A DNA stretch of 64,000 nucleotides from Leptonemataceae bacterium (lineage in GTDB: Bacteria; Spirochaetota; Leptospiria; Leptospirales; Leptonemataceae), in the NCBI GenBank assembly GCA_965227295.1, contig OZ245742.1, positions 832,001-896,000 of the forward strand, given 5' to 3'. Made by a program: the position numbers and the translations under genes. Positions 10,422-61,855 of the stretch are shown piece by piece (positions within the stretch are counted from its first letter, which is position 1; each line of letters begins with the position of its first letter). The notes under the pieces were generated by a model. It worked only from the letters and a program-made list of their open reading frames with translations, was not told the DNA's origin and ran no database searches.

Positions 10422-10537
10422 CCGGTATTCACTACGGCGAAGCCATCGTCGGCAACGTCGGCTCATCGGAGCGACTGGAGTATACGGTCATCGGCGACAC
10501 TGTGATATTGAGACCTTTGCCGTGGTTCAAGACTTAG
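10421..10537 (+). pseudogene. Class III adenylate/guanylate cyclase catalytic-domain fragment
   Basis: Not in the ORF track. 10421-10504 translates TGIHYGEAIVGNVGSSERLEYTVIGDTV, then unrelated ILRPLPWFKT* in place of the expected NxAxR. Confidence 0.75.
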
Positions 10538-10692
10538 TTACGGATGCACGGTCGTTAAAATCGTAGAGTAAGTTCCGGAATGGTTAAGGGAATTTTTTGG
10601 CTACGGCACCGGGAGAACAGTCACCACTACTCTCCGCATCCTTCGTACCTCTGCGGTAAGAACGCCGCGATTGCCGCTGCGCGACACCGCCA

Positions 10693-48829: not shown

Positions 48830-50773
48830 TCAGGAGCCCTTAAAGAAACTCGTGATTCGCGAGAGCAGACCGCCGCTCTTTTTGGGCTTCGCCGTTTCTT
48901 CCCGGCGCCCACGGTGATCCCCGCGCTTGTCTCCACGTTTATCGCCGCGTTCTTCACGATCACGACCGCCGCGGCCACGTCCGCCCCGGCGACGACGCCC
49001 GCCGCCGCTGCCACTACCGCTGCCGCCACGTCCGGATTTACCGTCGTCGTTCTGCTCGTTGCTGCGCTCTTCGTCGCGGTTCCGGTTGCGACCACGGCCG
49101 CCCCGGCGACGACGACGGCGACCGCCTCCGCCCTCGGAGCCGCCGCGCTCGGAACGTCCGCCGTTTCCGCGCCCGTCGTTTTCAAGGCTGCCCTCGGCAG
49201 CAGCGACGGCTTTGGCACCATAGAGCACCGACAGGCGATCCCGCTCGCGGATGGACATATCCTCGGTAATGATCGGTCCGTCAGGAAGCGACGGGGCTGT
49301 CGTGGTTTCCTGTTTTTCTCCGCCCCGACGTCCCCGGCCGCCCCGGCGACGACGACGGCGACGCCCGCCGCGCTCTCCGTCTCCGGATTCTTCACCGCCG
49401 GAATCCCGGCGATTGCCGCGGTCGTCGTCTTGAGCTTCGTTTGCTTCGCTACCGCTGTCGTTGTCGTTGTCGTTGTCGTTCTCGCGGTCTTCGCCGCCGC
49501 GACCGCCCCGGTCTCGTCGGCGTCCGCCGCGGGAGCGACCGCCGGAACGTTCGCTGCGTTCTGGACGCTCGCCGTCGCGATCCGCGGATTCGCTTCCGTC
49601 ACGGAAGGGTGTAAAATCGTCTCTGTTCGGCATGGTTAGTTTATCCGTATCCACGTCGACGCTCGGGATCTTCTGGCCGATGTAGCGATGAATGCGCGGC
49701 AGACTTTCGTAGTCGTCCTCGGAACAGTACGAGATACTCGTTCCGGTTTTACCCGCGCGTGCCGTGCGGCCGATGCGGTGCACATAGCTGTCACCGTCCT
49801 GGGGAAGATCGTAGTTGAATACGTGTGTGATATCGTCGACATCGAGGCCCCGGCTCGCCACGTCCGTGGCAACCAGGACCGAGTATTTTCCCTGCTTGAA
49901 GTCTTTCAGCAGGCGGATGCGCTTCTTCTGGTCCAACAGCGATGAAATACCCGTTGCCGCCACGCCGTAGCGTCGCAGTAATCGCTGGAGATGCTCTACC
50001 TTGTGCCGGAAGTTCGTGAACACGATGGACCGGGCGGCATCGCCTTCGGCTTCGCTGTTTGCGGTAAGGATCTGGTTTACCAGATAGGGATCCTTTTCCG
50101 CGCGCCCCAGGTGAACGAGTTGCTGATCGATCTTGTCGACAGCGACGGTGTTCGCCTCGATGCGCACTTCCACCGGATCGTGCATGAAGTCCGAGGCCAG
50201 CCGCAGCACGTAGTACGAAAGCGTGGCCGAGAACAACTGGGTCTGCGCTTCCGACGGGCACTGCCGCATGATGTAACGCACGTCGCGGATGAAGCCCATG
50301 TCAAACATGCGATCGGCTTCGTCCAGGACGAGGTGTTTGATGGCGGAGAGATCGATCTTCTTCTGCTTGATGTAGTCGATAAGCCGCCCCGGAGTCGCGG
50401 CGATGATCTGCGCGCCCCGGGCGAGGCCGGCTTCCTGTTCACGGTACTCCGCGCCGCCGTAGATCGGCAGGACTTCCACCGGGCGATACTTGCACAGCTT
50501 CGCGGCCTCTTCGGCAATCTGGAGACAGAGTTCCCGGGTGGGCGTGACGATCAGCGCGGCGGGACCGGGCGGATCGTTCTCGAAGATGTCCTGAAGGATC
50601 GGCAGGAGAAAGGCGACCGTCTTGCCGGTTCCCGTCTGGGAAATGCCGGCGATGTCTTTGCCTTCCAGGCCCGGCCCGATGCACTGCTCCTGGATCGGCG
50701 TCATGGTCTCGAAGCCGGCATCGGCGATGCCTTTGAGCAGGTCGGGGTGGAGTTGAACCTCTGTGAATTGCAC
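48830..50773 (-). CDS. DEAD-box RNA helicase with long RG-rich C-terminal tail
   Basis: Q motif, QTGTGKT, PTRELC, TPGR, DEAD, SAT, SRGLD, HRIGRTAR. Confidence 0.96.
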   Translation of the reverse strand: MQFTEVQLHPDLLKGIADAGFETMTPIQEQCIGPGLEGKDIAGISQTGTGKTVAFLLPILQDIFENDPPGPAALIVTPTRELCLQIAEEAAKLCKYRPVEVLPIYGGAEYREQEAGLARGAQIIAATPGRLIDYIKQKKIDLSAIKHLVLDEADRMFDMGFIRDVRYIMRQCPSEAQTQLFSATLSYYVLRLASDFMHDPVEVRIEANTVAVDKIDQQLVHLGRAEKDPYLVNQILTANSEAEGDAARSIVFTNFRHKVEHLQRLLRRYGVAATGISSLLDQKKRIRLLKDFKQGKYSVLVATDVASRGLDVDDITHVFNYDLPQDGDSYVHRIGRTARAGKTGTSISYCSEDDYESLPRIHRYIGQKIPSVDVDTDKLTMPNRDDFTPFRDGSESADRDGERPERSERSGGRSRGGRRRDRGGRGGEDRENDNDNDNDSGSEANEAQDDDRGNRRDSGGEESGDGERGGRRRRRRRGGRGRRGGEKQETTTAPSLPDGPIITEDMSIRERDRLSVLYGAKAVAAAEGSLENDGRGNGGRSERGGSEGGGGRRRRRRGGRGRNRNRDEERSNEQNDDGKSGRGGSGSGSGGGRRRRGGRGRGGRDREERGDKRGDKRGDHRGRREETAKPKKSGGLLSRITSFFKGS

Positions 50774-50941
50774 CTGATCGGCTAGCCTTTGGGTGAGGAC
50801 TCCCCTGTCAATTTATATCCGGGTTCTCTCTATAATCTATGCGTGCCTCGTTCGCATCGTTGGACCACGAACCGTTCCCTGAACCCCTGTGCTGAAAATA
50901 TTGGTTGCGTACGGCATTACACAGTATGAAATTCCGCCACT

Positions 50942-52843
50942 ATGACAGACACACTTCCTCGTTATTTCTACGATGTTCTTGCGAATGCCGCCCAACGCTG
51001 GCCGGATCAGGAGTCCTTCCGGCGCCGGGTCGGAGACAAACTCGTCGGCCGCACCTACAAGGAGATGAAACGTTGCTCCGACGAACTCGCCGCCGGCCTC
51101 ATTGACCTGGGCGTTCAAGTCGGAGACCGGGTTACCTTTTTGTGCGATGCATCGCATAACTGGTTTCTCACCGACGTGGCCATCGTTGCGTCCGGCGGAG
51201 TCAGTACGCCGCGGGGAACGGACGTTACCGACGACGACATCATCTACATTGTCTCACACTCCGAGAGTAAATATGCCCTCGTGCAGCGCGAAAAAGATCG
51301 CAAGCGTCTGGAAGGACTGCGCTCCAATTTTCCGGCGTTACAGCAGATCTTCGTCATCGAAACCGAGGAAGGCGAACTCGCCACGGGACCGGCAACCGTG
51401 GGCGAACTCATGGAAAAAGGACGCGCGGCTTTGCAAAACGACGCCGAAATCGTACGCAAGCGCGTGAATCAAACCGATCCCAAAGCCATGGCCACGTTGA
51501 TTTATACTTCCGGAACCACCGGCGCGCCCAAAGGCGTGATGCTGAACCAGCACGGTCTGTTGAGCGGCATCCAGCGTGTGCTGGAACGTTTGAACTTTCA
51601 GCAATCCGATCGCGTGGTTTCGTTGCTGCCGCCCTGGCACATCTTCGAACGCGCCAACGAATACGGCGTAGCCTGGACCGGTATCGACTTTCTGATTTCG
51701 AACATCAATGTACTCAAGAAAGACCTGGCCGAATTCAAGCCGACCATCCTGCCGTCCGTCCCGCGCATCTGGGAGTCCGTCTACAACGGCATCATCGGTA
51801 ACGTAAAGAAGGCCAGCCCGGCCCAGCAAAAGATCTTCAATTTCTTTCTGAACGCAGGCACCGCCTGGGCACGCCACCGGTCGATCCTGGGCGGCTACGA
51901 TCTCCAGGTAGAGAAGCCCTTTTTCCTGGTTTCGTTCGTGCGGCGACTGTGGTCGCTGATCGTGCTGATCTTAATGTCACCTCTGAAAGGATTAAGCAAA
52001 GTCATCTTTAAGAAGATCCACCAGGCGGTGGGCGGCGAGCTGCGCATCTCCGTTTCCGGCGGCTCGGCCCTGCCCGCGGTGGTGGATCGTTTTCTCCAGG
52101 CCATCGGAATTCCGGTGATGGAAGGCTACGGCATGACGGAAACCTCGGCCATCATTTCCGTGCGCGAGTTTTCGCGTCCCACCAGCGGCACCGTGGGCCG
52201 GCCGATCCCGGGCTACAGCATCAAGCTCAAGGACGAAACCGGCAAAGACGTTAAGGACGTGCCGGGTCAGAAGGGCACGCTCTGGGTAAAGTCGGATCAG
52301 ATCCTCATGGGATATTACAAACGCCCCGAGCTGAACGACGTTGTCTTCGATGAGGACGGCCACTTCGATACCGGGGACATCATGAAACTGAGCTGGCGCG
52401 GGGAACTCATGTTCGCCGGCCGGGCGAAAGATACGATCGCCCTTGGTGGCGGTGAAAACGTGGAGCCGGTACCGATCGAGGATAAGTTGCTGGAGTCCGA
52501 GTTTATCGATCAGGTGATGGTGGTCGGTGACGATAAAAAGACCCTGGGTGCCATCATCGTACCGAACTTCGAGCGAGTGCAGTCCGAGGTCTCCGGATTG
52601 TCCGAGGACGCGAAGTCCTGGAACGGCAATAAGGACGTGCGCGCACTGTACAAAAAGGAAATCACCCGCCTCATTTCCAAAGATACCGGCTTCAAGACCT
52701 TCGAGGTCGTGCCGGGCAACTGCTTTTACATTTCCGGACGTCCGTTCGAGGCCAACATCGAGATGACCCAAACGCTAAAGATGAAGCGCCCGGTCATAAA
52801 GGAAAACTTCGCGAGCGAAATCGACGCGATGTACGAGAAGTAA
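50942..52843 (+). CDS. fadD: Long-chain fatty acid--CoA ligase
   Basis: YTSGTTGAPKG, LPPWHIFER, EGYGMTE, TGD, GRAKD..GENVEP. Confidence 0.92.
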   Translation: MTDTLPRYFYDVLANAAQRWPDQESFRRRVGDKLVGRTYKEMKRCSDELAAGLIDLGVQVGDRVTFLCDASHNWFLTDVAIVASGGVSTPRGTDVTDDDIIYIVSHSESKYALVQREKDRKRLEGLRSNFPALQQIFVIETEEGELATGPATVGELMEKGRAALQNDAEIVRKRVNQTDPKAMATLIYTSGTTGAPKGVMLNQHGLLSGIQRVLERLNFQQSDRVVSLLPPWHIFERANEYGVAWTGIDFLISNINVLKKDLAEFKPTILPSVPRIWESVYNGIIGNVKKASPAQQKIFNFFLNAGTAWARHRSILGGYDLQVEKPFFLVSFVRRLWSLIVLILMSPLKGLSKVIFKKIHQAVGGELRISVSGGSALPAVVDRFLQAIGIPVMEGYGMTETSAIISVREFSRPTSGTVGRPIPGYSIKLKDETGKDVKDVPGQKGTLWVKSDQILMGYYKRPELNDVVFDEDGHFDTGDIMKLSWRGELMFAGRAKDTIALGGGENVEPVPIEDKLLESEFIDQVMVVGDDKKTLGAIIVPNFERVQSEVSGLSEDAKSWNGNKDVRALYKKEITRLISKDTGFKTFEVVPGNCFYISGRPFEANIEMTQTLKMKRPVIKENFASEIDAMYEK

Positions 52844-53081: not shown

Positions 53082-54797
53082 ATGCCTGACATCAGCCAAC
53101 CGCTCATTGTTCAAAACGATAAGACCATGCTCCTGGAAGTTCAAAACGAGAGCTTCGAGGACTGTCGCAGCATCGTAACTCGCTTTGCCGAACTCGAAAA
53201 GAGCCCGGAATACCTTCATACGTACCGAATCACCCCATTGTCGCTCTGGAACGCGGCATCTTCGAAGCTCAGCGCCGAAGACATTATCGAAGCGCTGGAG
53301 AAATACAGCAAGTACCCGGTGCCGAAGAACGTCATCAGCGAGGTGCAAGAGCAAATTTCCCGCTACGGCAAGGTTAAGCTGGTTAAGGAAGACGACGGTA
53401 CTCTCTACATCGTCTCCGACGAGCGCGCGTTCCTGAACGAAATCGCCAACCATCGCACGGTGCAGCCCTACATCGAAGACCGCCAGGGCGATCGCATTAT
53501 CGTAAAAGGCAACTATCGCGGCCACATCAAGCAGGCACTCATTCGCATCGGCTATCCCGTGGAGGACCTGGCCGGCTACGATGACGGCGCCGAATTCGGT
53601 TTCAACTTCCGGCACAAGACCCTGAGCGGCCGTGAGTTCGGTATGCGTGACTACCAGCGCCGCTCCGTCGAAGTCTTTCACGCCAACGGTTCCCGCGAGG
53701 GCGGTTCCGGTGTGATCGTGCTGCCCTGCGGCGCCGGTAAGACCATCGTGGGCATCGGCGTCATGCAGATCGTCGGCGCACAAACGCTCATCCTGGTAAC
53801 GAACACGCTGTCCATCCGCCAGTGGAAGAACGAGATCCTGGACAAGACGGACATCACCGAAGAGGACATCGGTGAGTACAGCGGCGAGAAAAAAGAAATC
53901 AAGCCCATCACCATCGCGACTTACAACATCATCACGCACCGCAAGAAGAAAGGCGGGGAGTTCACGCACTTCAACATCTTCTCCGCTAACAACTGGGGAC
54001 TGATCATTTACGATGAGGTGCACCTGTTGCCGGCGCCGGTATTTCGGATGACCTCCGAACTCCAGGCGAAGCGCCGCCTCGGCCTCACGGCGACCCTCGT
54101 GCGCGAGGACGGCCTGGAAGAGGACGTGTTCTCGCTGATCGGTCCGAAGAAGTACGACGTGCCCTGGAAGGAACTCGAGAAACAGGACTGGATCGCCAAC
54201 GCTCGTTGCATCGAGATTCGCGTGGACATGGAAGAAGAACTGCGCATGCAGTACAGCCTGGCCGACGACCGCGAGAAGTATCGCCTGGCGTCGGAGAATC
54301 CTTCCAAAATGGAAGCCATTCACACCATCATCGAAGAACACGGCCGCGAGAACGTGCTCATCATCGGCCAGTACATCGATCAGCTCGAAAAGATCGCGGC
54401 GCACTTTAACTTTCCTTTAATTACAGGTAAGACGCCGCTCATGGAACGCGAGCGTCTCTACCAGGGCTTCCGCTCCGGTGAGATCCCGTGCCTCATCGTT
54501 TCCCGCGTGGCGAACTTCTCCATCGACCTGCCCGACGCCTCGGTGGCCATTCAGGTTTCGGGGACGTTCGGCTCGCGCCAGGAAGAGGCGCAGCGCCTCG
54601 GCCGCGTGCTGCGTCCGAAGAGCGGCGACAACACTGCGTTCTTTTATTCTCTCGTAAGCCGCGACACCACCGAAGAACGCTTCGGTCAGAACCGGCAGTT
54701 GTTTCTTACGGAACAGGGCTACGAGTACCAGATCTACACTTACGATCAGTTCGAAGAGATGAAGGGCCGCATCCGCGAACACATTCTCCAGGGCTGA
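53082..54797 (+). CDS. xpb: DNA repair helicase XPB
   Basis: PLIVQNDKT..FAELEKSPE..YRIT N-terminus, LPCGAGKT, DEVH, LTATLVRED (RED motif), QRLGRVLR. Confidence 0.95.
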   Translation: MPDISQPLIVQNDKTMLLEVQNESFEDCRSIVTRFAELEKSPEYLHTYRITPLSLWNAASSKLSAEDIIEALEKYSKYPVPKNVISEVQEQISRYGKVKLVKEDDGTLYIVSDERAFLNEIANHRTVQPYIEDRQGDRIIVKGNYRGHIKQALIRIGYPVEDLAGYDDGAEFGFNFRHKTLSGREFGMRDYQRRSVEVFHANGSREGGSGVIVLPCGAGKTIVGIGVMQIVGAQTLILVTNTLSIRQWKNEILDKTDITEEDIGEYSGEKKEIKPITIATYNIITHRKKKGGEFTHFNIFSANNWGLIIYDEVHLLPAPVFRMTSELQAKRRLGLTATLVREDGLEEDVFSLIGPKKYDVPWKELEKQDWIANARCIEIRVDMEEELRMQYSLADDREKYRLASENPSKMEAIHTIIEEHGRENVLIIGQYIDQLEKIAAHFNFPLITGKTPLMERERLYQGFRSGEIPCLIVSRVANFSIDLPDASVAIQVSGTFGSRQEEAQRLGRVLRPKSGDNTAFFYSLVSRDTTEERFGQNRQLFLTEQGYEYQIYTYDQFEEMKGRIREHILQG

Positions 54798-54803
54798 TCG
54801 CGG

Positions 54804-57017
54804 GTGTTGCGCTACGCTTTGTTCCTGCTTCGATCGATCGTATTCGTGACCGCGGCGTCCTGTCTCGTTTCCTGCGGCCAGGACGTCCTCGCGGAGGTCG
54901 ACAGCCACCACGACAACGTCAGCAATGAGCAGCGCTGGCTGGAACAATACCGTCTCCCGGAAAAACTCGGTGCGCCCCTGGCCGGCTTTCCGAACGTCCG
55001 CCGGGACACCGCCGGCACCCCCCGGGGCGAACTGGCAGCCCGCTTGCGCCAGGCCGGTTTCTTAGCTTACGACGGCCGCAAGTTACTGCTGCACGAAGAA
55101 AGCGACGACGATGATCACGAGTCCTTCGATCCCTCCGAGGGTTCCGGCACTTTCTGGACCGGCCGCTTCCGCCCCATCTTTGCAAGACCAATAAAGCTCC
55201 CGAGCGGCAAAGACGGCGTCGCCGTCTCGCTGCGTTTTCGCGGAGTGTTGATCACGGACGACGGCGGCGAGTCGTACCGGTCCATGCCGGGTCTGCCGGA
55301 GCGCGCCGTATCCGTGGACCCCGGCAACACCGGCTTCGGTCCGAAGCTATATCGCGACGTCCTCGATCTCTGGCAAAACCAGCGGCGGCCGAATCAAATG
55401 GTCGCGCTGAACAAACACCACGTCCTGTTCACGGACGACGGCGGCGTTACGTTTCGTAAGATCAGTCTCGGCGGTGAATTCGATAAGGCCACCCTGAACA
55501 CGCTGACCGGCCGCACAAACGACGACGGCGAGATCAGCGAAATCTTTGTAGGCACCTACATTCGCGGCGTCGCGCGCTGCACGCCTGTGCGAGATTTCAC
55601 GGCCCTGCGCTGTCGCCAGCTCGCGAAAGGCATGCCCTTTCTGAAACACGAGCAGGGTTCGTACTTCATCGAAGAGGTCAGCGGCCTCGCCCTGGATCCT
55701 TCACGCGATCGGCTCTACGCCCTGTCTCGATTTCAGGCGGCGATCAACGTCCTTGACTTGAGCAACCGCGGTGAACGCTTTGAGAGTTTCCCGCTACCCG
55801 GCTTCGGCGGTGCCGATCATGCCGAGAGCCTGTGGTTCGACGCCGCCGGCGAAACGGCCTACATCGCGACAAACCGCGGCATCTACGTTTTTACGGCAGG
55901 CGACGGGAGCTTCCGCCACGTTCCCCATGATCGCATCTTTCCCGGTTACGACGAGGACCGTCCGGCGGAATTCCTGGCCACGACGGCCCGGGGCGAAGGA
56001 CGTCTCCTGCTGTCCCGCTATCTTTCGGAAACTCAGCACCGCACGCCCTCTAACTTACGAGCGTTGTATGTTAGCCCCACGTCCGTGCGCCGCAAACGCC
56101 GCACCGTCTTCGATCTCATCGACAACTACGGCTTCAATGCAGCCGTCATCGACGTCAAAGACGACTTCGGCCGACTGACATACGGCAGCGAACTGAAACT
56201 CGCGAAAGAGATGAACAACGCCCGGCGCCGCGTGGATGTACGCGGGCTGCTCAAACAACTGAAAGAACGCGGCGTGTATACCATTGCGCGGCAGGTGGTC
56301 TTCAAAGATCCGGTGCTCTTTCGTTACAAGAACAACGCCTACGCCATTCGGGACCGGCATCACGGCCGGCCCTGGGTCGGCAACGAGAAGGAACGCTGGG
56401 TGGACACCTACTCCAGCGAAGTCCACGATTACAACGTCAGTGTGGCTCAGGAGCTGGCGGAGATCGGCTTCGACGAAATCCAGTTCGACTACATCCGTTT
56501 TCCTTCGGACGGCCCCATCGGCCGTTGCCGCTGGTCGCACCGCCCGGGAGACGCTTACAAATCCGAGGCTCTGGAGAGTTTTCTCATGAAGGCGCGACGG
56601 GCCGTAACAAAGCCCATCTCCGTCGATATATACGGTTACCACGGCATCTATCGCGCGGGCACGGTGATCGGCCAGGACCTGATCGACGTCGGCGAGTTCG
56701 TGGACGTGGTCTCCCCCATGCATTACTCATCGCACTTCGGCAATCGTTACCTGGATCATTTCCCCAAAGACGTGCGCGCGTACGAACTTCTCAAGCTGGG
56801 CAGCGAACGCCCGCTGCGGATGACCCAGGGTCGCGTGCAGATTCGTCCCTGGGTCCAGGCCTTTCGCATGAAGATTTCCATTTGGGGCTACGGTGAACCG
56901 TACATGCGCAACCAGATTCTTGGCTCCGTGCGCGGCGGCGCCGACGGCTTTCTGTGGTGGGGCCCGATCAAAGAGTTTTATATTCCCGGCCGCGTCCACA
57001 TTGAACTACAAAAGTAA
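54804..57017 (+). CDS. Lipoprotein with Asp-box beta-propeller and DUF4015 putative glycoside hydrolase domain
   Basis: Lipobox LVSC; TDDGGESY and TDDGGVTF Asp boxes; AAVIDVKDDFG, FDEIQFDYIRFP, SPMHYSSH, RPWVQAF. Confidence 0.8.
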   Translation: MLRYALFLLRSIVFVTAASCLVSCGQDVLAEVDSHHDNVSNEQRWLEQYRLPEKLGAPLAGFPNVRRDTAGTPRGELAARLRQAGFLAYDGRKLLLHEESDDDDHESFDPSEGSGTFWTGRFRPIFARPIKLPSGKDGVAVSLRFRGVLITDDGGESYRSMPGLPERAVSVDPGNTGFGPKLYRDVLDLWQNQRRPNQMVALNKHHVLFTDDGGVTFRKISLGGEFDKATLNTLTGRTNDDGEISEIFVGTYIRGVARCTPVRDFTALRCRQLAKGMPFLKHEQGSYFIEEVSGLALDPSRDRLYALSRFQAAINVLDLSNRGERFESFPLPGFGGADHAESLWFDAAGETAYIATNRGIYVFTAGDGSFRHVPHDRIFPGYDEDRPAEFLATTARGEGRLLLSRYLSETQHRTPSNLRALYVSPTSVRRKRRTVFDLIDNYGFNAAVIDVKDDFGRLTYGSELKLAKEMNNARRRVDVRGLLKQLKERGVYTIARQVVFKDPVLFRYKNNAYAIRDRHHGRPWVGNEKERWVDTYSSEVHDYNVSVAQELAEIGFDEIQFDYIRFPSDGPIGRCRWSHRPGDAYKSEALESFLMKARRAVTKPISVDIYGYHGIYRAGTVIGQDLIDVGEFVDVVSPMHYSSHFGNRYLDHFPKDVRAYELLKLGSERPLRMTQGRVQIRPWVQAFRMKISIWGYGEPYMRNQILGSVRGGADGFLWWGPIKEFYIPGRVHIELQK

Positions 57018-57167: not shown

Positions 57168-58079
57168 ATGTTCAGCAGGCAAACGGTATACTACACCGGC
57201 TACCTCGGCGGAGCCCTGTGGCCGCTCGCGGTGGCTCTTTATGCGTGTTTTTACATGTCCGTGATCGACGACAACGCCGGGCCGGCCGCGGTGCGAGACG
57301 GGATCGAGCCGGCCCTTCTCACGCTGATCTTTCTTCTTTTAACGTTAGCGTGGGAGCGCGCCATGCCTTACCGGCGACGCTGGAATCGCCTGGGACGTCG
57401 TGAGTTCCAGGACTGGTTACACTATTTCACGGCGGTCCTGCCGGCGGAAAGCCTCGGCCGTCATCTGGCCTATGCGGTTGTTCCTGTAATTCTCTGGCAG
57501 GTCCTCCCGGACCACGGCGGAGTCTGGCCGCGCGAATGGCCTGTGGCCGTTCAGGTAGTGCTCGGTATCCTGTTGTTCGACCTGGTTTACTACTGGTATC
57601 ACCGGTTGACGCATACGAAGCTATGGCTGTGGCCGCTGCATCACCTGCATCATACGCCGCGCTATCTCATTGTCACCAGGGGCTTTCGCCACACATTCCC
57701 GGAGTGGGGCCTGGATGTCCTGCTGCACACGTCCGCCTTCCTGCTCGTGGGCATGCCGGATCGGATTGCCCTGTGGGTTACAGCCGTCACGCTGCCCATC
57801 GGCATCCTGTCCCATGCGAACGTACGCTTGCCCGTACCGGCGATTATTCCCCGCATCTTCAATTTGCCGCAGACCCATCGCGTGCATCACGATCGCTCGC
57901 TCCACGGCGGCCTGTCGAATTATTCTGGTTTTTTTATGATCTGGGACCACGTCTTCGGAACGTTCGTGGACCCGGGGCGGTACCGGCCCAAACGTTTGGG
58001 CATCACCGGTTACCGGACGCCGCGCAGTTTCTGGAAGCAGTACTGGTCGTTCGTCTACGGTGTGAACCGCAGCTCTTGA
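57168..58079 (+). CDS. Sterol desaturase / fatty acid hydroxylase family protein
   Basis: His boxes HRLTH, HHLHH, SHAN, HRVHH and WDHVFGT. Confidence 0.92.
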   Translation: MFSRQTVYYTGYLGGALWPLAVALYACFYMSVIDDNAGPAAVRDGIEPALLTLIFLLLTLAWERAMPYRRRWNRLGRREFQDWLHYFTAVLPAESLGRHLAYAVVPVILWQVLPDHGGVWPREWPVAVQVVLGILLFDLVYYWYHRLTHTKLWLWPLHHLHHTPRYLIVTRGFRHTFPEWGLDVLLHTSAFLLVGMPDRIALWVTAVTLPIGILSHANVRLPVPAIIPRIFNLPQTHRVHHDRSLHGGLSNYSGFFMIWDHVFGTFVDPGRYRPKRLGITGYRTPRSFWKQYWSFVYGVNRSS

Positions 58080-58410
58080 ATTACCGGAAACGTTCGGGTA
58101 AGTCGCGCACGCCCCGAATCGTGGTGTAAGTGACGGCCAGTGTATATTAAGACTTTTATGGGCACGGCTGGTTCCAGGCGACCACGGAGGTTATGCCGGG
58201 GAATGTGGTAAAGCGCACCGGCAGAATTCTCGCTTCAGCGAGATTTCTGAACCGCCGGCTTTCCGCATCGGCGGAAAGCATAAGTCCCCGGCGTCTTCGT
58301 TGCAAGAAACGCTGCGGTAGCCGAGTCGCAAACCGACGTCCGGGTCGAACGCAGCATTCTTAACAAAACGAAAACCCACAACTCCCGCTTCGCCGTAGCC
58401 CAAAAAAAGA
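58078..58410 (+). ncRNA. Candidate large structured ncRNA, copy 1 (with 67-nt two-hairpin expansion)
   Basis: Nested helices CCCCG/CGGGG, CGTGGT/ACCACG, GGCCAG/CTGGTT, GCGT/ACGC, TGCGG/TCGCA; G-U pairs favour the + strand; ends approximate. Confidence 0.55.
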
Positions 58411-58469
58411 CTGAACGATGCGGCTACACACTTAATCTTTCTCAAGATCCGCCACGAACCGCAGTTCTT

Positions 58470-58740
58470 GAACTACCGGAAACGCTCAAGTAGTTCGCGC
58501 ACGCCCCGGATCGTGGTGTAAGTGACGGCCAGTGTACATTAAGCCTTTTATGGGCACGGCTGGTTCCAGGCGACCACGGAGGTTATGCCGGGGAATGTGG
58601 TAAAGCGCACCGGAACGGCGTCTTCGTTGCAAGAAACGCTGCGGTAGCTGAGTCGCACAACCAGCGTCCGGGTCGAGCGCTGCATTCTTAACAAAACAAA
58701 AAACCACAACTCCCGCTCAGCTGTAGCAAAAAAAGTCCTT
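58470..58740 (+). ncRNA. Candidate large structured ncRNA, copy 2 (compact form)
   Basis: Same helices as copy 1; expansion replaced by CCG-GAA-CGG; ends approximate. Confidence 0.55.
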
Positions 58741-58835
58741 TTACGACTACGCAACTTGTTTCATGTTTCTCGCGGCGACGGTTACGAACCGCGGCTCTTG
58801 AATTACCGGAAACATTTTTGTTTGATGGTGTACGT

Positions 58836-59384
58836 TTACACGGCCACGCGTTCCGTAGCGGCCGTGTCGAGTTCCTCGTTGAATCCGAAGAGACGCGGAT
58901 CCTTAAGACGATCGATATAAAGAACACCCTCCAGGTGATCGCATTCGTGCTGATAGACGACGGCATCGAAGCCCTCGATGATTTCGTCGTGGAACTCTTC
59001 GTCTTCGTCGTACCACTTCAGCCGGATGCGGCGCGGACGCTCCACGTAACCGCGCATTCCGGGAACGGACAGGCAGCCTTCCCAGAATCCCTCGCCGGCT
59101 TCTTCAAGTTGTTCGATCTCGGGGTTGATCAGAATCTTGTGCTCGATGCCGTTGCCGTTCAGCTCCGGGTAACGATCGCTGCGGTCGAAGCCGACCACCA
59201 CAACGCGCTTGAGCACGCCGATCTGAGGAGCCGCCAGGCCGAGGCCGTGAGCATCCTCCATGGTATCGAACATGTCACGGATGAGCTTTTTGATCTCTTT
59301 GCTGCGAATCTCCGTCACCGGAACCGGTTCGGATTTCTTGCGGAGCAGCGGATCGCCTGCGCGCAGAATCTTACGGACTGCCAT
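58836..59384 (-). CDS. def: Peptide deformylase
   Basis: [24 protein letters not shown]. Confidence 0.97.
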
Positions 59385-60271: not shown

Positions 60272-60344
<73 letters not shown>

Positions 60345-60496: not shown

Positions 60497-61855
60497 TTGG
60501 ATCTTACGGTACTTATCGCGGTCGCCTTCCTGGTGCTGCTCCTCGCGGCGGCCGGGTACTATGTGTACCTGTCCATGGCCGGCCCCCGCAAGATTGAAGA
60601 GATCGAGCGGCTCATCAAACAGAACCGCATTCGCGAAGCCCTCTTCGAACTGGAGAAGGTACTGGAGCGCGACGACCGCAACATGCGGGCGCACTTTCTC
60701 GCGGCACGCTGTCACCTGCGCAACAACGCCGCCGGTAAAGCCATCCTCTCGCTCCGCCAGTGCCTTAAGATTGCGAAGTACTCGCCCGAGGTCAGCGAAG
60801 CCGCCGTGCGCCGCCTCCTCGCCCAGTGTCTGGTGGCCATGGGCAATCATTCCGAGGCCAAGAACGAGTACCTCATCCTCACGCAATTAGAGCCGACCGT
60901 CTACGAGCACTTCTATCACGTCGGTGAGATCTTCTTTCGCGCCGGCGTCCACGTGAAGGCGTTGCAGTTCTTAAAAAAAGCAGTGTCGCTCAACCCGAAG
61001 CATGCGGACTCGCTGGCCCTGGTCGGCCAGTGCGAGTACCATCAAAATGCGTATCAGGAAGCGAAGCAGGCCCTGGCCCAGGCCGTGCAGCTCAAGCCCG
61101 ATCACACGGTAGCGCACTACTTCCTCGGACTCACGTTGCGCTACCTCGGTGACGCCGAGTGGGCGGTCAAAGAATTTGAAAAGGCCGAGAAAGACGACGG
61201 CCTCAAAGAAAAAGCCATCCTCGCCAAGGGCATGGCACTCATCGATCTCGAAGCGTATCCGCGCGCGATTATGGAACTACAGCGCGGGCTGAAGCTAACG
61301 AAAGTCGGCTCCGAAACGATGATCAACATGAACTATCTGCTGGCGCTGGCGGCGGAGCGCACCCGGGATCTGGGCACGGCCATTCAACACTGGGAAATCA
61401 TCGAAAAACTGCGGCCTGGTTACCGCGACGTACGGGATAAGCTCAAGCAGTACTCGGAGTTTCGAACCGACGACGTCATCAAAGACTTCATGATCGCCAA
61501 CCGCGAGCAGTTCGAAGAGACGGGACGTTCCATGCTGGAAGGCCTGGGCTACAGCATCAGCGCGTGCAGCGTACTCAACGACACTTCCATGGAAGCGCTG
61601 GTCTACGACAACGACGGCAACAAACGCAATCTTCGTAAGTTCTACACGCTGATCCATATCCAGCGAGACATGACGCCGCTCAACGAACGCAGCGTGCGCG
61701 ACTTTCACGAAAGCATGCGCGAAAAGAACGCGTCCCGGGGCATCATCATGACTACCGGCGACGTCATGCCCCAGGCCTCCAACTTTGCGTCTTCACGGCC
61801 CATCGATATTTACGACGCCGCCAAAACGGCGGAGGCGCTGAAAGCCGGGAGCTAG
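60497..61855 (+). CDS. Membrane-anchored TPR protein with C-terminal Mrr-like restriction-endonuclease-fold domain
   Basis: N-terminal TM, multiple TPRs, then EQFEE...LEGLGY, VRDFHESM..NASRGIIMTTG..A.NFASSRPIDIYD (Mrr_cat pattern). Confidence 0.8.
   Translation: MDLTVLIAVAFLVLLLAAAGYYVYLSMAGPRKIEEIERLIKQNRIREALFELEKVLERDDRNMRAHFLAARCHLRNNAAGKAILSLRQCLKIAKYSPEVSEAAVRRLLAQCLVAMGNHSEAKNEYLILTQLEPTVYEHFYHVGEIFFRAGVHVKALQFLKKAVSLNPKHADSLALVGQCEYHQNAYQEAKQALAQAVQLKPDHTVAHYFLGLTLRYLGDAEWAVKEFEKAEKDDGLKEKAILAKGMALIDLEAYPRAIMELQRGLKLTKVGSETMINMNYLLALAAERTRDLGTAIQHWEIIEKLRPGYRDVRDKLKQYSEFRTDDVIKDFMIANREQFEETGRSMLEGLGYSISACSVLNDTSMEALVYDNDGNKRNLRKFYTLIHIQRDMTPLNERSVRDFHESMREKNASRGIIMTTGDVMPQASNFASSRPIDIYDAAKTAEALKAGS

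Follow-up and report, generated by a model that had tools for sequence, protein, structure and literature searches.

The tandem array at positions 58064-58813 of a 64,000-nucleotide (nt) stretch of a Leptonemataceae genome (contig OZ245742.1, positions 832,001 to 896,000; hereafter the window) raises the question of whether its two long, similar units are copies of an RNA gene or of a repeat of another kind. An earlier note, made from the letters of the window, had proposed an undescribed large structured non-coding RNA with a possibly variable segment, or else a non-autonomous element inserted in tandem. We compared the array with its own genome, a single contig of 5.94 Mb with 59.8% G+C, and with other genomes. 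The 330-nt unit occurred ~200 times at ~108 intergenic loci, mostly in arrays of 2-8 units (range 1-8). The array in the window is probably one array of a lineage-restricted, high-copy, non-coding mosaic intergenic repeat and not an RNA gene, and the family behaves like selfish repeat DNA rather than like a folded RNA gene.

The size of the family was estimated in several ways. Unit 1 of the window gave at least 205 BLAST matches in its own genome. Counted by module, BLAST returned 198 matches to module A and 164 to module B, the two main parts of the unit, in 90 clusters. Two rounds of nhmmer gave 302 matches that fell into 110 clusters with a combined span of 82,967 bp; ~125 matches were close to full length, and two of the clusters were opposite-strand matches to the same copies. 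Six cluster spans hold an embedded gene, and without these the repeat amounts to ~76 kb. The family takes up 1.3-1.4% of the genome, and a tally by module gave 206 A and 183 B modules. The commonest unit spacing was 328-331 nt, and the tandem layout recurred at ~70 loci besides the array in the window. The family consensus covers the whole 330 nt, including the tail that had been taken for a variable segment.

In the window, a repeat search recovered the layout described in the earlier note: a 28-bp repeat begins at 58064, recurs 392 nt further on at 58456 and again 330 nt further on at 58786. By direct count, any two of the three 28-mers differ at 1-3 positions, and the two 119-nt cores differ at exactly three (58117, 58145 and 58152), as had been stated. 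A direct repeat of 158 nt (58064-58221 and 58456-58613) is 94% identical, and the 3' halves contain more repeats at 76-98%; Tandem Repeats Finder did not report the array. Unit 1 (58064-58455, + strand) is the 392-nt "long" form, with linker module L, module A, an insert D, module B and a tail, and unit 2 (58456-58785, +) is the canonical 330-nt form with L, A, B and tail. Unit 1 is the longer because of the 67-nt insert at 58222-58288. Module A of unit 1 (58108-58221, +), where the 119-nt core is placed, is the best conserved part of the family, and module B plus tail follows the insert at 58289-58455 (+). The unit anatomy, with its modules and unfixed array edges, indicates that the 28-bp "boundary repeats" are the start of the next unit. 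The first (58064-58091, +), placed by repeat search and family consensus, is the part of L at unit positions 1-28; the third (58786-58813, +) is the start of a third unit truncated within L. The divergence of the tails was borne out, as the alignment of the two units is poor over their last ~50 nt, but the tails are family variants and not unique segments. The variant tail of unit 1 recurs with 36/36 bases at the edge of another array, at genome 3467621-3467656 (the offset from window to genome coordinates is 832000).

We considered whether the unit had been falsely duplicated in the assembly. Short-read contigs from two independent public DNA runs (Logan) cover both outer junctions without mismatch (57600-58091 and 58784-59300). 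The contigs break within the array, and none joins unit 1 to unit 2, which speaks for an artefact. However, the units differ by the 67-nt insert, the diverged tails and point differences, and ~70 other loci have the same tandem layout in a single-contig genome. In the contigs of the two runs, word depth within the array was ~5- to 250-fold that of the flanks, indicating a high-copy repeat and not a chance duplication. A third sequencing run under the same species label contained next to none of the stretch. We give an artefact next to no credence.

The family is lineage-specific, and sequence comparison confines it to this species among the genomes compared. No real match to the unit was found in 40 relatives, two of the same genus included, and a sequence profile of module A gave 0/41 matches in other genomes of the taxonomic family. 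Patterns of the A-core and of the B-core had 0 matches each in JGI metagenome contigs, and the array had no match in phage or plasmid collections. The hydroxylase and deformylase genes that flank the array are still adjacent in both congeners, with a gap of 122-147 nt as opposed to ~875 nt here. Therefore, the array is an insertion relative to the congeners; identity at the orthologous site is only 68-76%, and the insertion boundary is blurred. Outside this genome, only the ~65-nt core of module B occurs, as four conserved blocks at fixed spacing. Three such solo B-cores are present in one congener (L057:2301-2418, L058:4759-4873 and L059:4047-4187) and one in the other (L060:4634-4752, equal to L035:1478-1596), and none was found elsewhere among 185,579 species with one genome each. 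The one solo B-core that was read with its surroundings lies in a short gap directly behind a gene end. These solo B-cores may be remnants of the same stock as the unit.

If the units were structured RNA genes, transcription of each from the + strand would yield an RNA of ~300 nt in which a rod-like scaffold is conserved and a 3' guide segment varies. In favour of this, 43/135 columns of module A are invariant, a mark of strong conservation; both copies in the window allow a nested rod to be drawn, G-U pairs included; and insert D and a further module, C, are genuinely strong hairpins. However, the structured-RNA reading failed every test that we ran. At the gathering threshold, Rfam found only a tRNA at 60272-60344 in the whole window and nothing in the array; RNase P, tmRNA, SRP RNA, ribozymes, group II intron domains, riboswitches and large RNAs of the OLE, GOLLD or ROOL type were thereby rejected. 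With E up to 10, the region 57900-59000 gave only chance-level matches to istR (16.3 bits vs 45) and isrK (13.7 vs 50). Whole units folded no better than dinucleotide shuffles (z scores of +0.26 and +0.11 for RNA on the two strands and -0.02 for DNA), and for the 119-nt cores, the + strand gave z scores of +0.32 and +0.47, and the - strand scores of +1.59 and +0.93. That is, the long nested rod is present in both copies but is no stabler than shuffled sequence.

The alignment of many copies gave the same result. From 146 copies, RNAalifold derived a consensus with 8 pairs (-2.7 kcal/mol) for the + strand and with 3 for the - strand; on 46 canonical units, it gave -21.75 kcal/mol with a covariation term of -1.1 and a double change in 2/42 pairs. 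In these 46 units, the helices drawn in the earlier note were 78.2% paired, compared with 77.9% in column shuffles, and 75/500 shuffles reached the observed level. Several of the proposed pairs are broken in most copies, e.g., in 33, 41 and 35 of 46. The compensatory change seen in the 5' hairpin is as it was described, with T58081/A58101 in copy 1 and C58473/G58493 in copy 2, but it concerns a standard pair, and both sides differ in only 1/46 units. The argument that G-U pairs favour the + strand rests on invariant columns. The top mutual-information pairs were neighbouring positions of alternative multi-base blocks and marked haplotypes, not antiparallel helices. The claim that no open reading frame (ORF) is conserved proved correct, as all six frames contain stops in most of 73 copies and there is no 3-base periodicity.

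The tails were searched for targets, and all 7 matches lay inside arrays; nothing else in the genome matched, and phages and plasmids gave no match either. A CRISPR-like or guide-RNA array was rejected on the ground that the tails share a family consensus and match no outside targets; the proposed variable segment falls with it. A group II intron or a derivative was also rejected, because the array lacks the domain motifs and the same models detect true introns elsewhere in the genome. With no Rfam family, no excess folding energy on either strand, no covariation in 46-146 copies and no unit in the congeners, we consider a family of structured RNA genes very unlikely.

The anatomy of the unit is that of a mosaic. 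L comprises unit positions ~331-357 and 1-45, begins with the 28-mer and forms one of two alternative small hairpins; A comprises positions ~45-175, and B plus tail positions ~176-330. The junction of A and B is a hotspot for optional modules. Insert D (58222-58288, + strand, in the window), identified by its folding z score and its genome copies, consists of two perfect hairpins and occurs in "long" units only. It folds with z scores of -5.2 (+) and -4.1 (-), and 20/20 of its genomic copies lie within arrays, all at one precise site of the A/B junction. D may have arrived later as a mini-element in its own right, or it may be kept by selection. Module C, a strong GC-rich hairpin of ~60 nt, replaces B at the 3' end of ~40 arrays (e.g., genome 3805530-3805706), and 42/44 copies lie at arrays. 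By eye, both arms of its outer stem vary together between copies.

The origin of the unit may be read from two singletons (genome 776280-776591 and 1378563-1378870) that match the family profile on both strands. Both are long imperfect palindromes in which A and B are mutual reverse complements, with folding z scores of -8.0 and -5.0. Arm-to-arm alignment gave a z score of 11 in a variant copy and of 2.5 in the canonical consensus, the latter reached by 15/500 shuffles. From these sequences, we infer that the unit may descend from a foldback element, the arms of which would since have diverged into A and B.

We then compared copies within and between loci. For 57/206 A modules, the closest relative was in the same array, at a median identity of 96.2%; for the other 149/206, it was at another locus, at a median of 91.5% and never at 98% or more. 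These nearest-neighbour identities suggest that local tandem duplication is recent and that spread between loci is older. Five variable blocks exist in 2-3 versions each and occur in nearly all combinations, with 9/9 combinations for three block pairs. This reassortment points to exchange among copies by gene conversion or recombination.

The placement of the arrays relative to genes was assessed with our own crude gene calls (5,017 ORFs by codon score). Convergent genes flank 51/108 array loci compared with 18.6% genome-wide, tandem genes 50/108 compared with 62.8%, and divergent genes 7/108 compared with 18.6%. At the tandem loci, the array lies in the sense direction in 20 cases and antisense in 30. 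Approximately 60% of arrays are co-oriented with the leading strand (500-kb bins), which is similar to the bias of genes. In their gene contexts, arrays avoid promoter regions and have no strand preference relative to transcription, which argues against a strand-specific RNA. The same pattern is reported for REP and SPRITE repeats (PMC3184786).

This placement could also be expected if the arrays were kept by the host as DNA or cis-acting RNA, e.g., because nucleoid or other architectural proteins bind to them, or because they act as terminators or insulators where genes converge. The 2.5-fold enrichment between convergent genes and the tightly held unit length of 328-331 nt fit this explanation, and solo B-cores persist behind gene ends in both congeners. 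The conserved B-core contains on its - strand a terminator-like hairpin followed by a T-run (58703-58727 in unit 2, from a consensus scan only and at shuffle level), and 81/108 arrays have a gene end facing that side. In Bacillus, tandem repeats of constant size and unknown function have been read likewise (PMC8161180). However, the scan found 3 terminator-like sites in the consensus vs 1.8 ± 1.3 in shuffles, which is no evidence of function. The congeners manage without an array at the same locus; array length, phase and module content vary freely; and purifying selection on selfish repeats alone would also leave them behind gene ends. We therefore regard host-selected arrays as improbable.

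The reading that we prefer, a mosaic intergenic repeat, may be put as a sequence of steps. A foldback element of the type of a MITE (a miniature transposable element with inverted repeats) would have been the ancestor, and its two arms would have become A and B. It would have spread in the past to new intergenic sites by means of an enzyme supplied in trans, since lost or still to be found. The present evolution of the family would be chiefly a matter of unequal recombination or slippage, which duplicates units in tandem, and of gene conversion among copies. Insertions in promoter regions would be selected against, and arrays would thereby be left behind gene ends. The second suggestion of the earlier note, a tandem non-autonomous element, fits much better than an RNA gene, given ~200 dispersed copies and an orthologous site that lacks the unit in two congeners.

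Several results weigh against this reading. The mean pairwise identity of the family is only 78%, so the family would be old and not a fresh burst. Identity between loci is 81% for A and 75% for B, a clear difference in conservation, and D is 93-100% identical across loci, compared with ~85% for the surrounding unit; the conservation of A and D could reflect selection for function rather than drift. Arrays start and end in several phases and have no fixed edge. Among the 110 clusters, starts fell at unit positions 1-10 (18), 21-50 (41) and 151-200 (26), and ends at positions 181-220 (38) and 331-357 (37). Start phase and end phase were not coupled, whereas the integration of a permuted circle would couple them. 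Canonical units lack terminal inverted repeats, and the edges of 14 full-length singletons showed no consistent target-site duplication. No mobilizing enzyme came to light in the searches made. PF01797 (Y1/RAYT) had 0 matches in the genome and matches in 6/14 control genomes, and PF07282 (TnpB) had 0 matches with positive controls. The sole IS110 transposase (PF01548) lies at genome 95.5 kb, where no array adjoins it, and does not resemble the unit in sequence. The 421 ORFs that flank arrays include no recurring mobile gene, only ordinary paralogue families. Finally, the promoter avoidance depends on the crude gene calls.

PF04986 (Y2/IS91) had 0 matches in the genome, but 0/14 control genomes matched either. 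Ten reverse-transcriptase matches belong to group II introns, none of which adjoins an array. No autonomous insertion sequence (IS) with matching ends was found in the gaps within arrays or in the searches for Y1, TnpB and IS110. As the earlier note had expected, no partner protein stands beside the array, neither among its neighbours in the window nor among the 421 flanking ORFs. The six large gaps within arrays hold ordinary genes (by eye Dps-like, lipoproteins and acyltransferase-like) and one unrelated IS-like ORF. One array is split at genome 1034817-1035969 by an insert of ~1.15 kb with a 366-amino-acid (aa) ORF that by eye resembles a DDE transposase of the IS3/IS481 type. The ten reverse-transcriptase matches fall into several identical sets (e.g., genome 40883-41494, 2021332-2021955 and 32821-33507); Rfam places group II intron RNA domains beside four of them, and the genome has several multi-copy group II introns.

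An active site-specific element would account for the array differently. A unit-length circle or single strand would integrate in tandem through the 28-45-nt linker hairpin L, which would serve as the attachment site of a recombinase encoded elsewhere, and each insertion would recreate the site for the next; an integron cassette, IS110, an Xer-dependent element or a rolling-circle element could be the model. The edges of the array in the window coincide exactly with unit position 1 at the start and with position 28 at the end, and 18/110 arrays start at positions 1-10 and 18 end at positions 351-357. L is well conserved with alternative hairpins, and D sits at one precise site in all 20 copies at 93-100% identity. 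The lack of target-site duplications and terminal inverted repeats is also as in HUH or tyrosine-recombinase systems. However, most arrays neither begin nor end at L, and their start and end phases are uncoupled. No pair of copies from different loci reaches 98% identity, and there is thus no sign of recent movement. Neither Y1 nor TnpB has a match in the genome, the single IS110 is unrelated, and no recombinase recurs beside arrays. By inspection, L has no integron core-site consensus, although no attC model or search for the integrase IntI was applied. On balance, this explanation appears quite unlikely.

A bolder proposal is a still-active mobile DNA of a kind undescribed in bacteria, in which a unit-length single strand or circle would re-insert beside its hairpin linker, leaving the target unduplicated and encoding no enzyme itself. 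Satellite-like arrays would build up behind genes in this way, and D would be a second element, smaller still, aimed at a single site within the first; in a variant, the arrays would be transcribed and A would be a repeated protein-binding RNA. Taken together, we give these ideas a small chance only.

Upstream of the array lies a fatty-acid hydroxylase family gene (57168-58079, + strand; from the ORF list, Pfam FA_hydroxylase E 8.5e-23), the last five sense codons and TGA stop (58077-58079) of which lie inside the first boundary repeat. The homology of its protein to the congeners stops at about WSFV, just 5' of the array. Downstream, a convergent peptide deformylase gene (58836-59384, - strand; from the ORF list, Pfam Pep_deformylase E 1.2e-53) has its stop 22 nt from the array. 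A 9-nt stretch located 14 nt 5' of the array equals unit positions 34-42 and could stem from microhomology or from the decay of a further unit. In the genome, three paralogous fatty-acid hydroxylase family genes (889168-890079, 50091-51407 and 1838158-1839510) each have an array directly 3' of them; this pairing may be due to chance or to duplication of the gene along with its 3' repeat. The window holds a second, fragmentary copy of the family, unit positions ~257-355, at 10518-10615 on the - strand (nhmmer, genome 842518-842615). The tRNA gene at 60272-60344 is on the - strand. An ORF at 60497-61855 (+) encodes a 452-aa protein with TPR repeats and a C-terminal Mrr-type restriction endonuclease domain (Pfam Mrr_cat, E 5.4e-12), and the region 53082-57017 (+) contains an XPB/ERCC3-like helicase gene (571 aa) directly followed by a gene for a 737-aa DUF4015 putative glycosyl hydrolase protein.

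The family works like REP/BIME, BOX, MIRU or MITE elements and resembles eukaryotic transposon-derived satellites, and it has the defining features of none of them. Like REPs and BIMEs, it is high-copy, non-coding and intergenic, with a few modules in varying combinations, hairpin parts and a bias to convergent genes; the REPs of Pseudomonas syringae are described as biased to sites between convergent genes in PMC3184786. REPs are 20-40-nt GC-rich palindromes in alternating orientation and are linked to RAYT (Y1), whereas the unit here is 330 nt long, strictly head-to-tail and without Y1, and its hairpin modules C and D are essentially confined to arrays. BOX (boxA-boxB(n)-boxC of Streptococcus pneumoniae) and SPRITE share with it a modular, non-autonomous make-up and an internally repeated module. 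BOX modules are ~45-60 nt long, and one module repeats inside one element, whereas the repeated part here is the entire 330-nt composite unit, in up to 8 copies.

MIRU and the Neisseria NIME are likewise tandem direct repeats at many intergenic loci of one lineage, with variable copy number. A MIRU can supply the stop codon of the upstream gene, and the array does so here for the hydroxylase gene at 58077-58079. MIRU units are ~40-100 nt long at ~40 loci; the unit here is 3-8 times longer, at ~108 loci, and takes up 1.3-1.4% of the genome. NIME and MIRU are both named in PMC3184786. With MITEs and foldback elements, the family shares its small, non-coding, dispersed copies, two variants of which are long imperfect palindromes, but it has no target-site duplication, no canonical terminal inverted repeats and no related autonomous IS among the families searched. 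In eukaryotes, satellite DNA is known to arise from transposon-derived units that became arrayed in tandem. The constant-size tandem repeats of Bacillus (Subirana and Messeguer) are also species-specific and non-coding, of tight unit length and without known function; their units are 20-23 or 52 nt with variable sequence (PMC8161180), whereas here there is one 330-nt sequence family. Among elements that move by known enzymes, an IS110/bridge-RNA element was rejected, as the lone DEDD transposase neither adjoins arrays nor shares sequence with the unit, and so were an IS200/IS605-derived element (PATE) and a TnpB omega-RNA, as the genome has no Y1 TnpA or TnpB matches while the controls were positive. 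In a literature search, which was not exhaustive, neither this element nor any similar dispersed arrays of long units were found described for bacteria. Dispersed intergenic repeats themselves are well known, and the family is best read as a new mosaic repeat of this intergenic kind, specific to its lineage and unusually large in its unit.

With a 330-nt composite unit at ~108 loci that is undetectable in sister species, the family would be an unusually clear bacterial counterpart of transposon-derived satellite DNA. The arrays break short-read assemblies of this lineage and may be mistaken for RNA genes or CRISPR-like loci. They would also offer a natural system in which to study how a repeat spreads without an obvious transposase, how gene conversion homogenizes and shuffles its copies, and what effect arrays may have on termination between converging genes.

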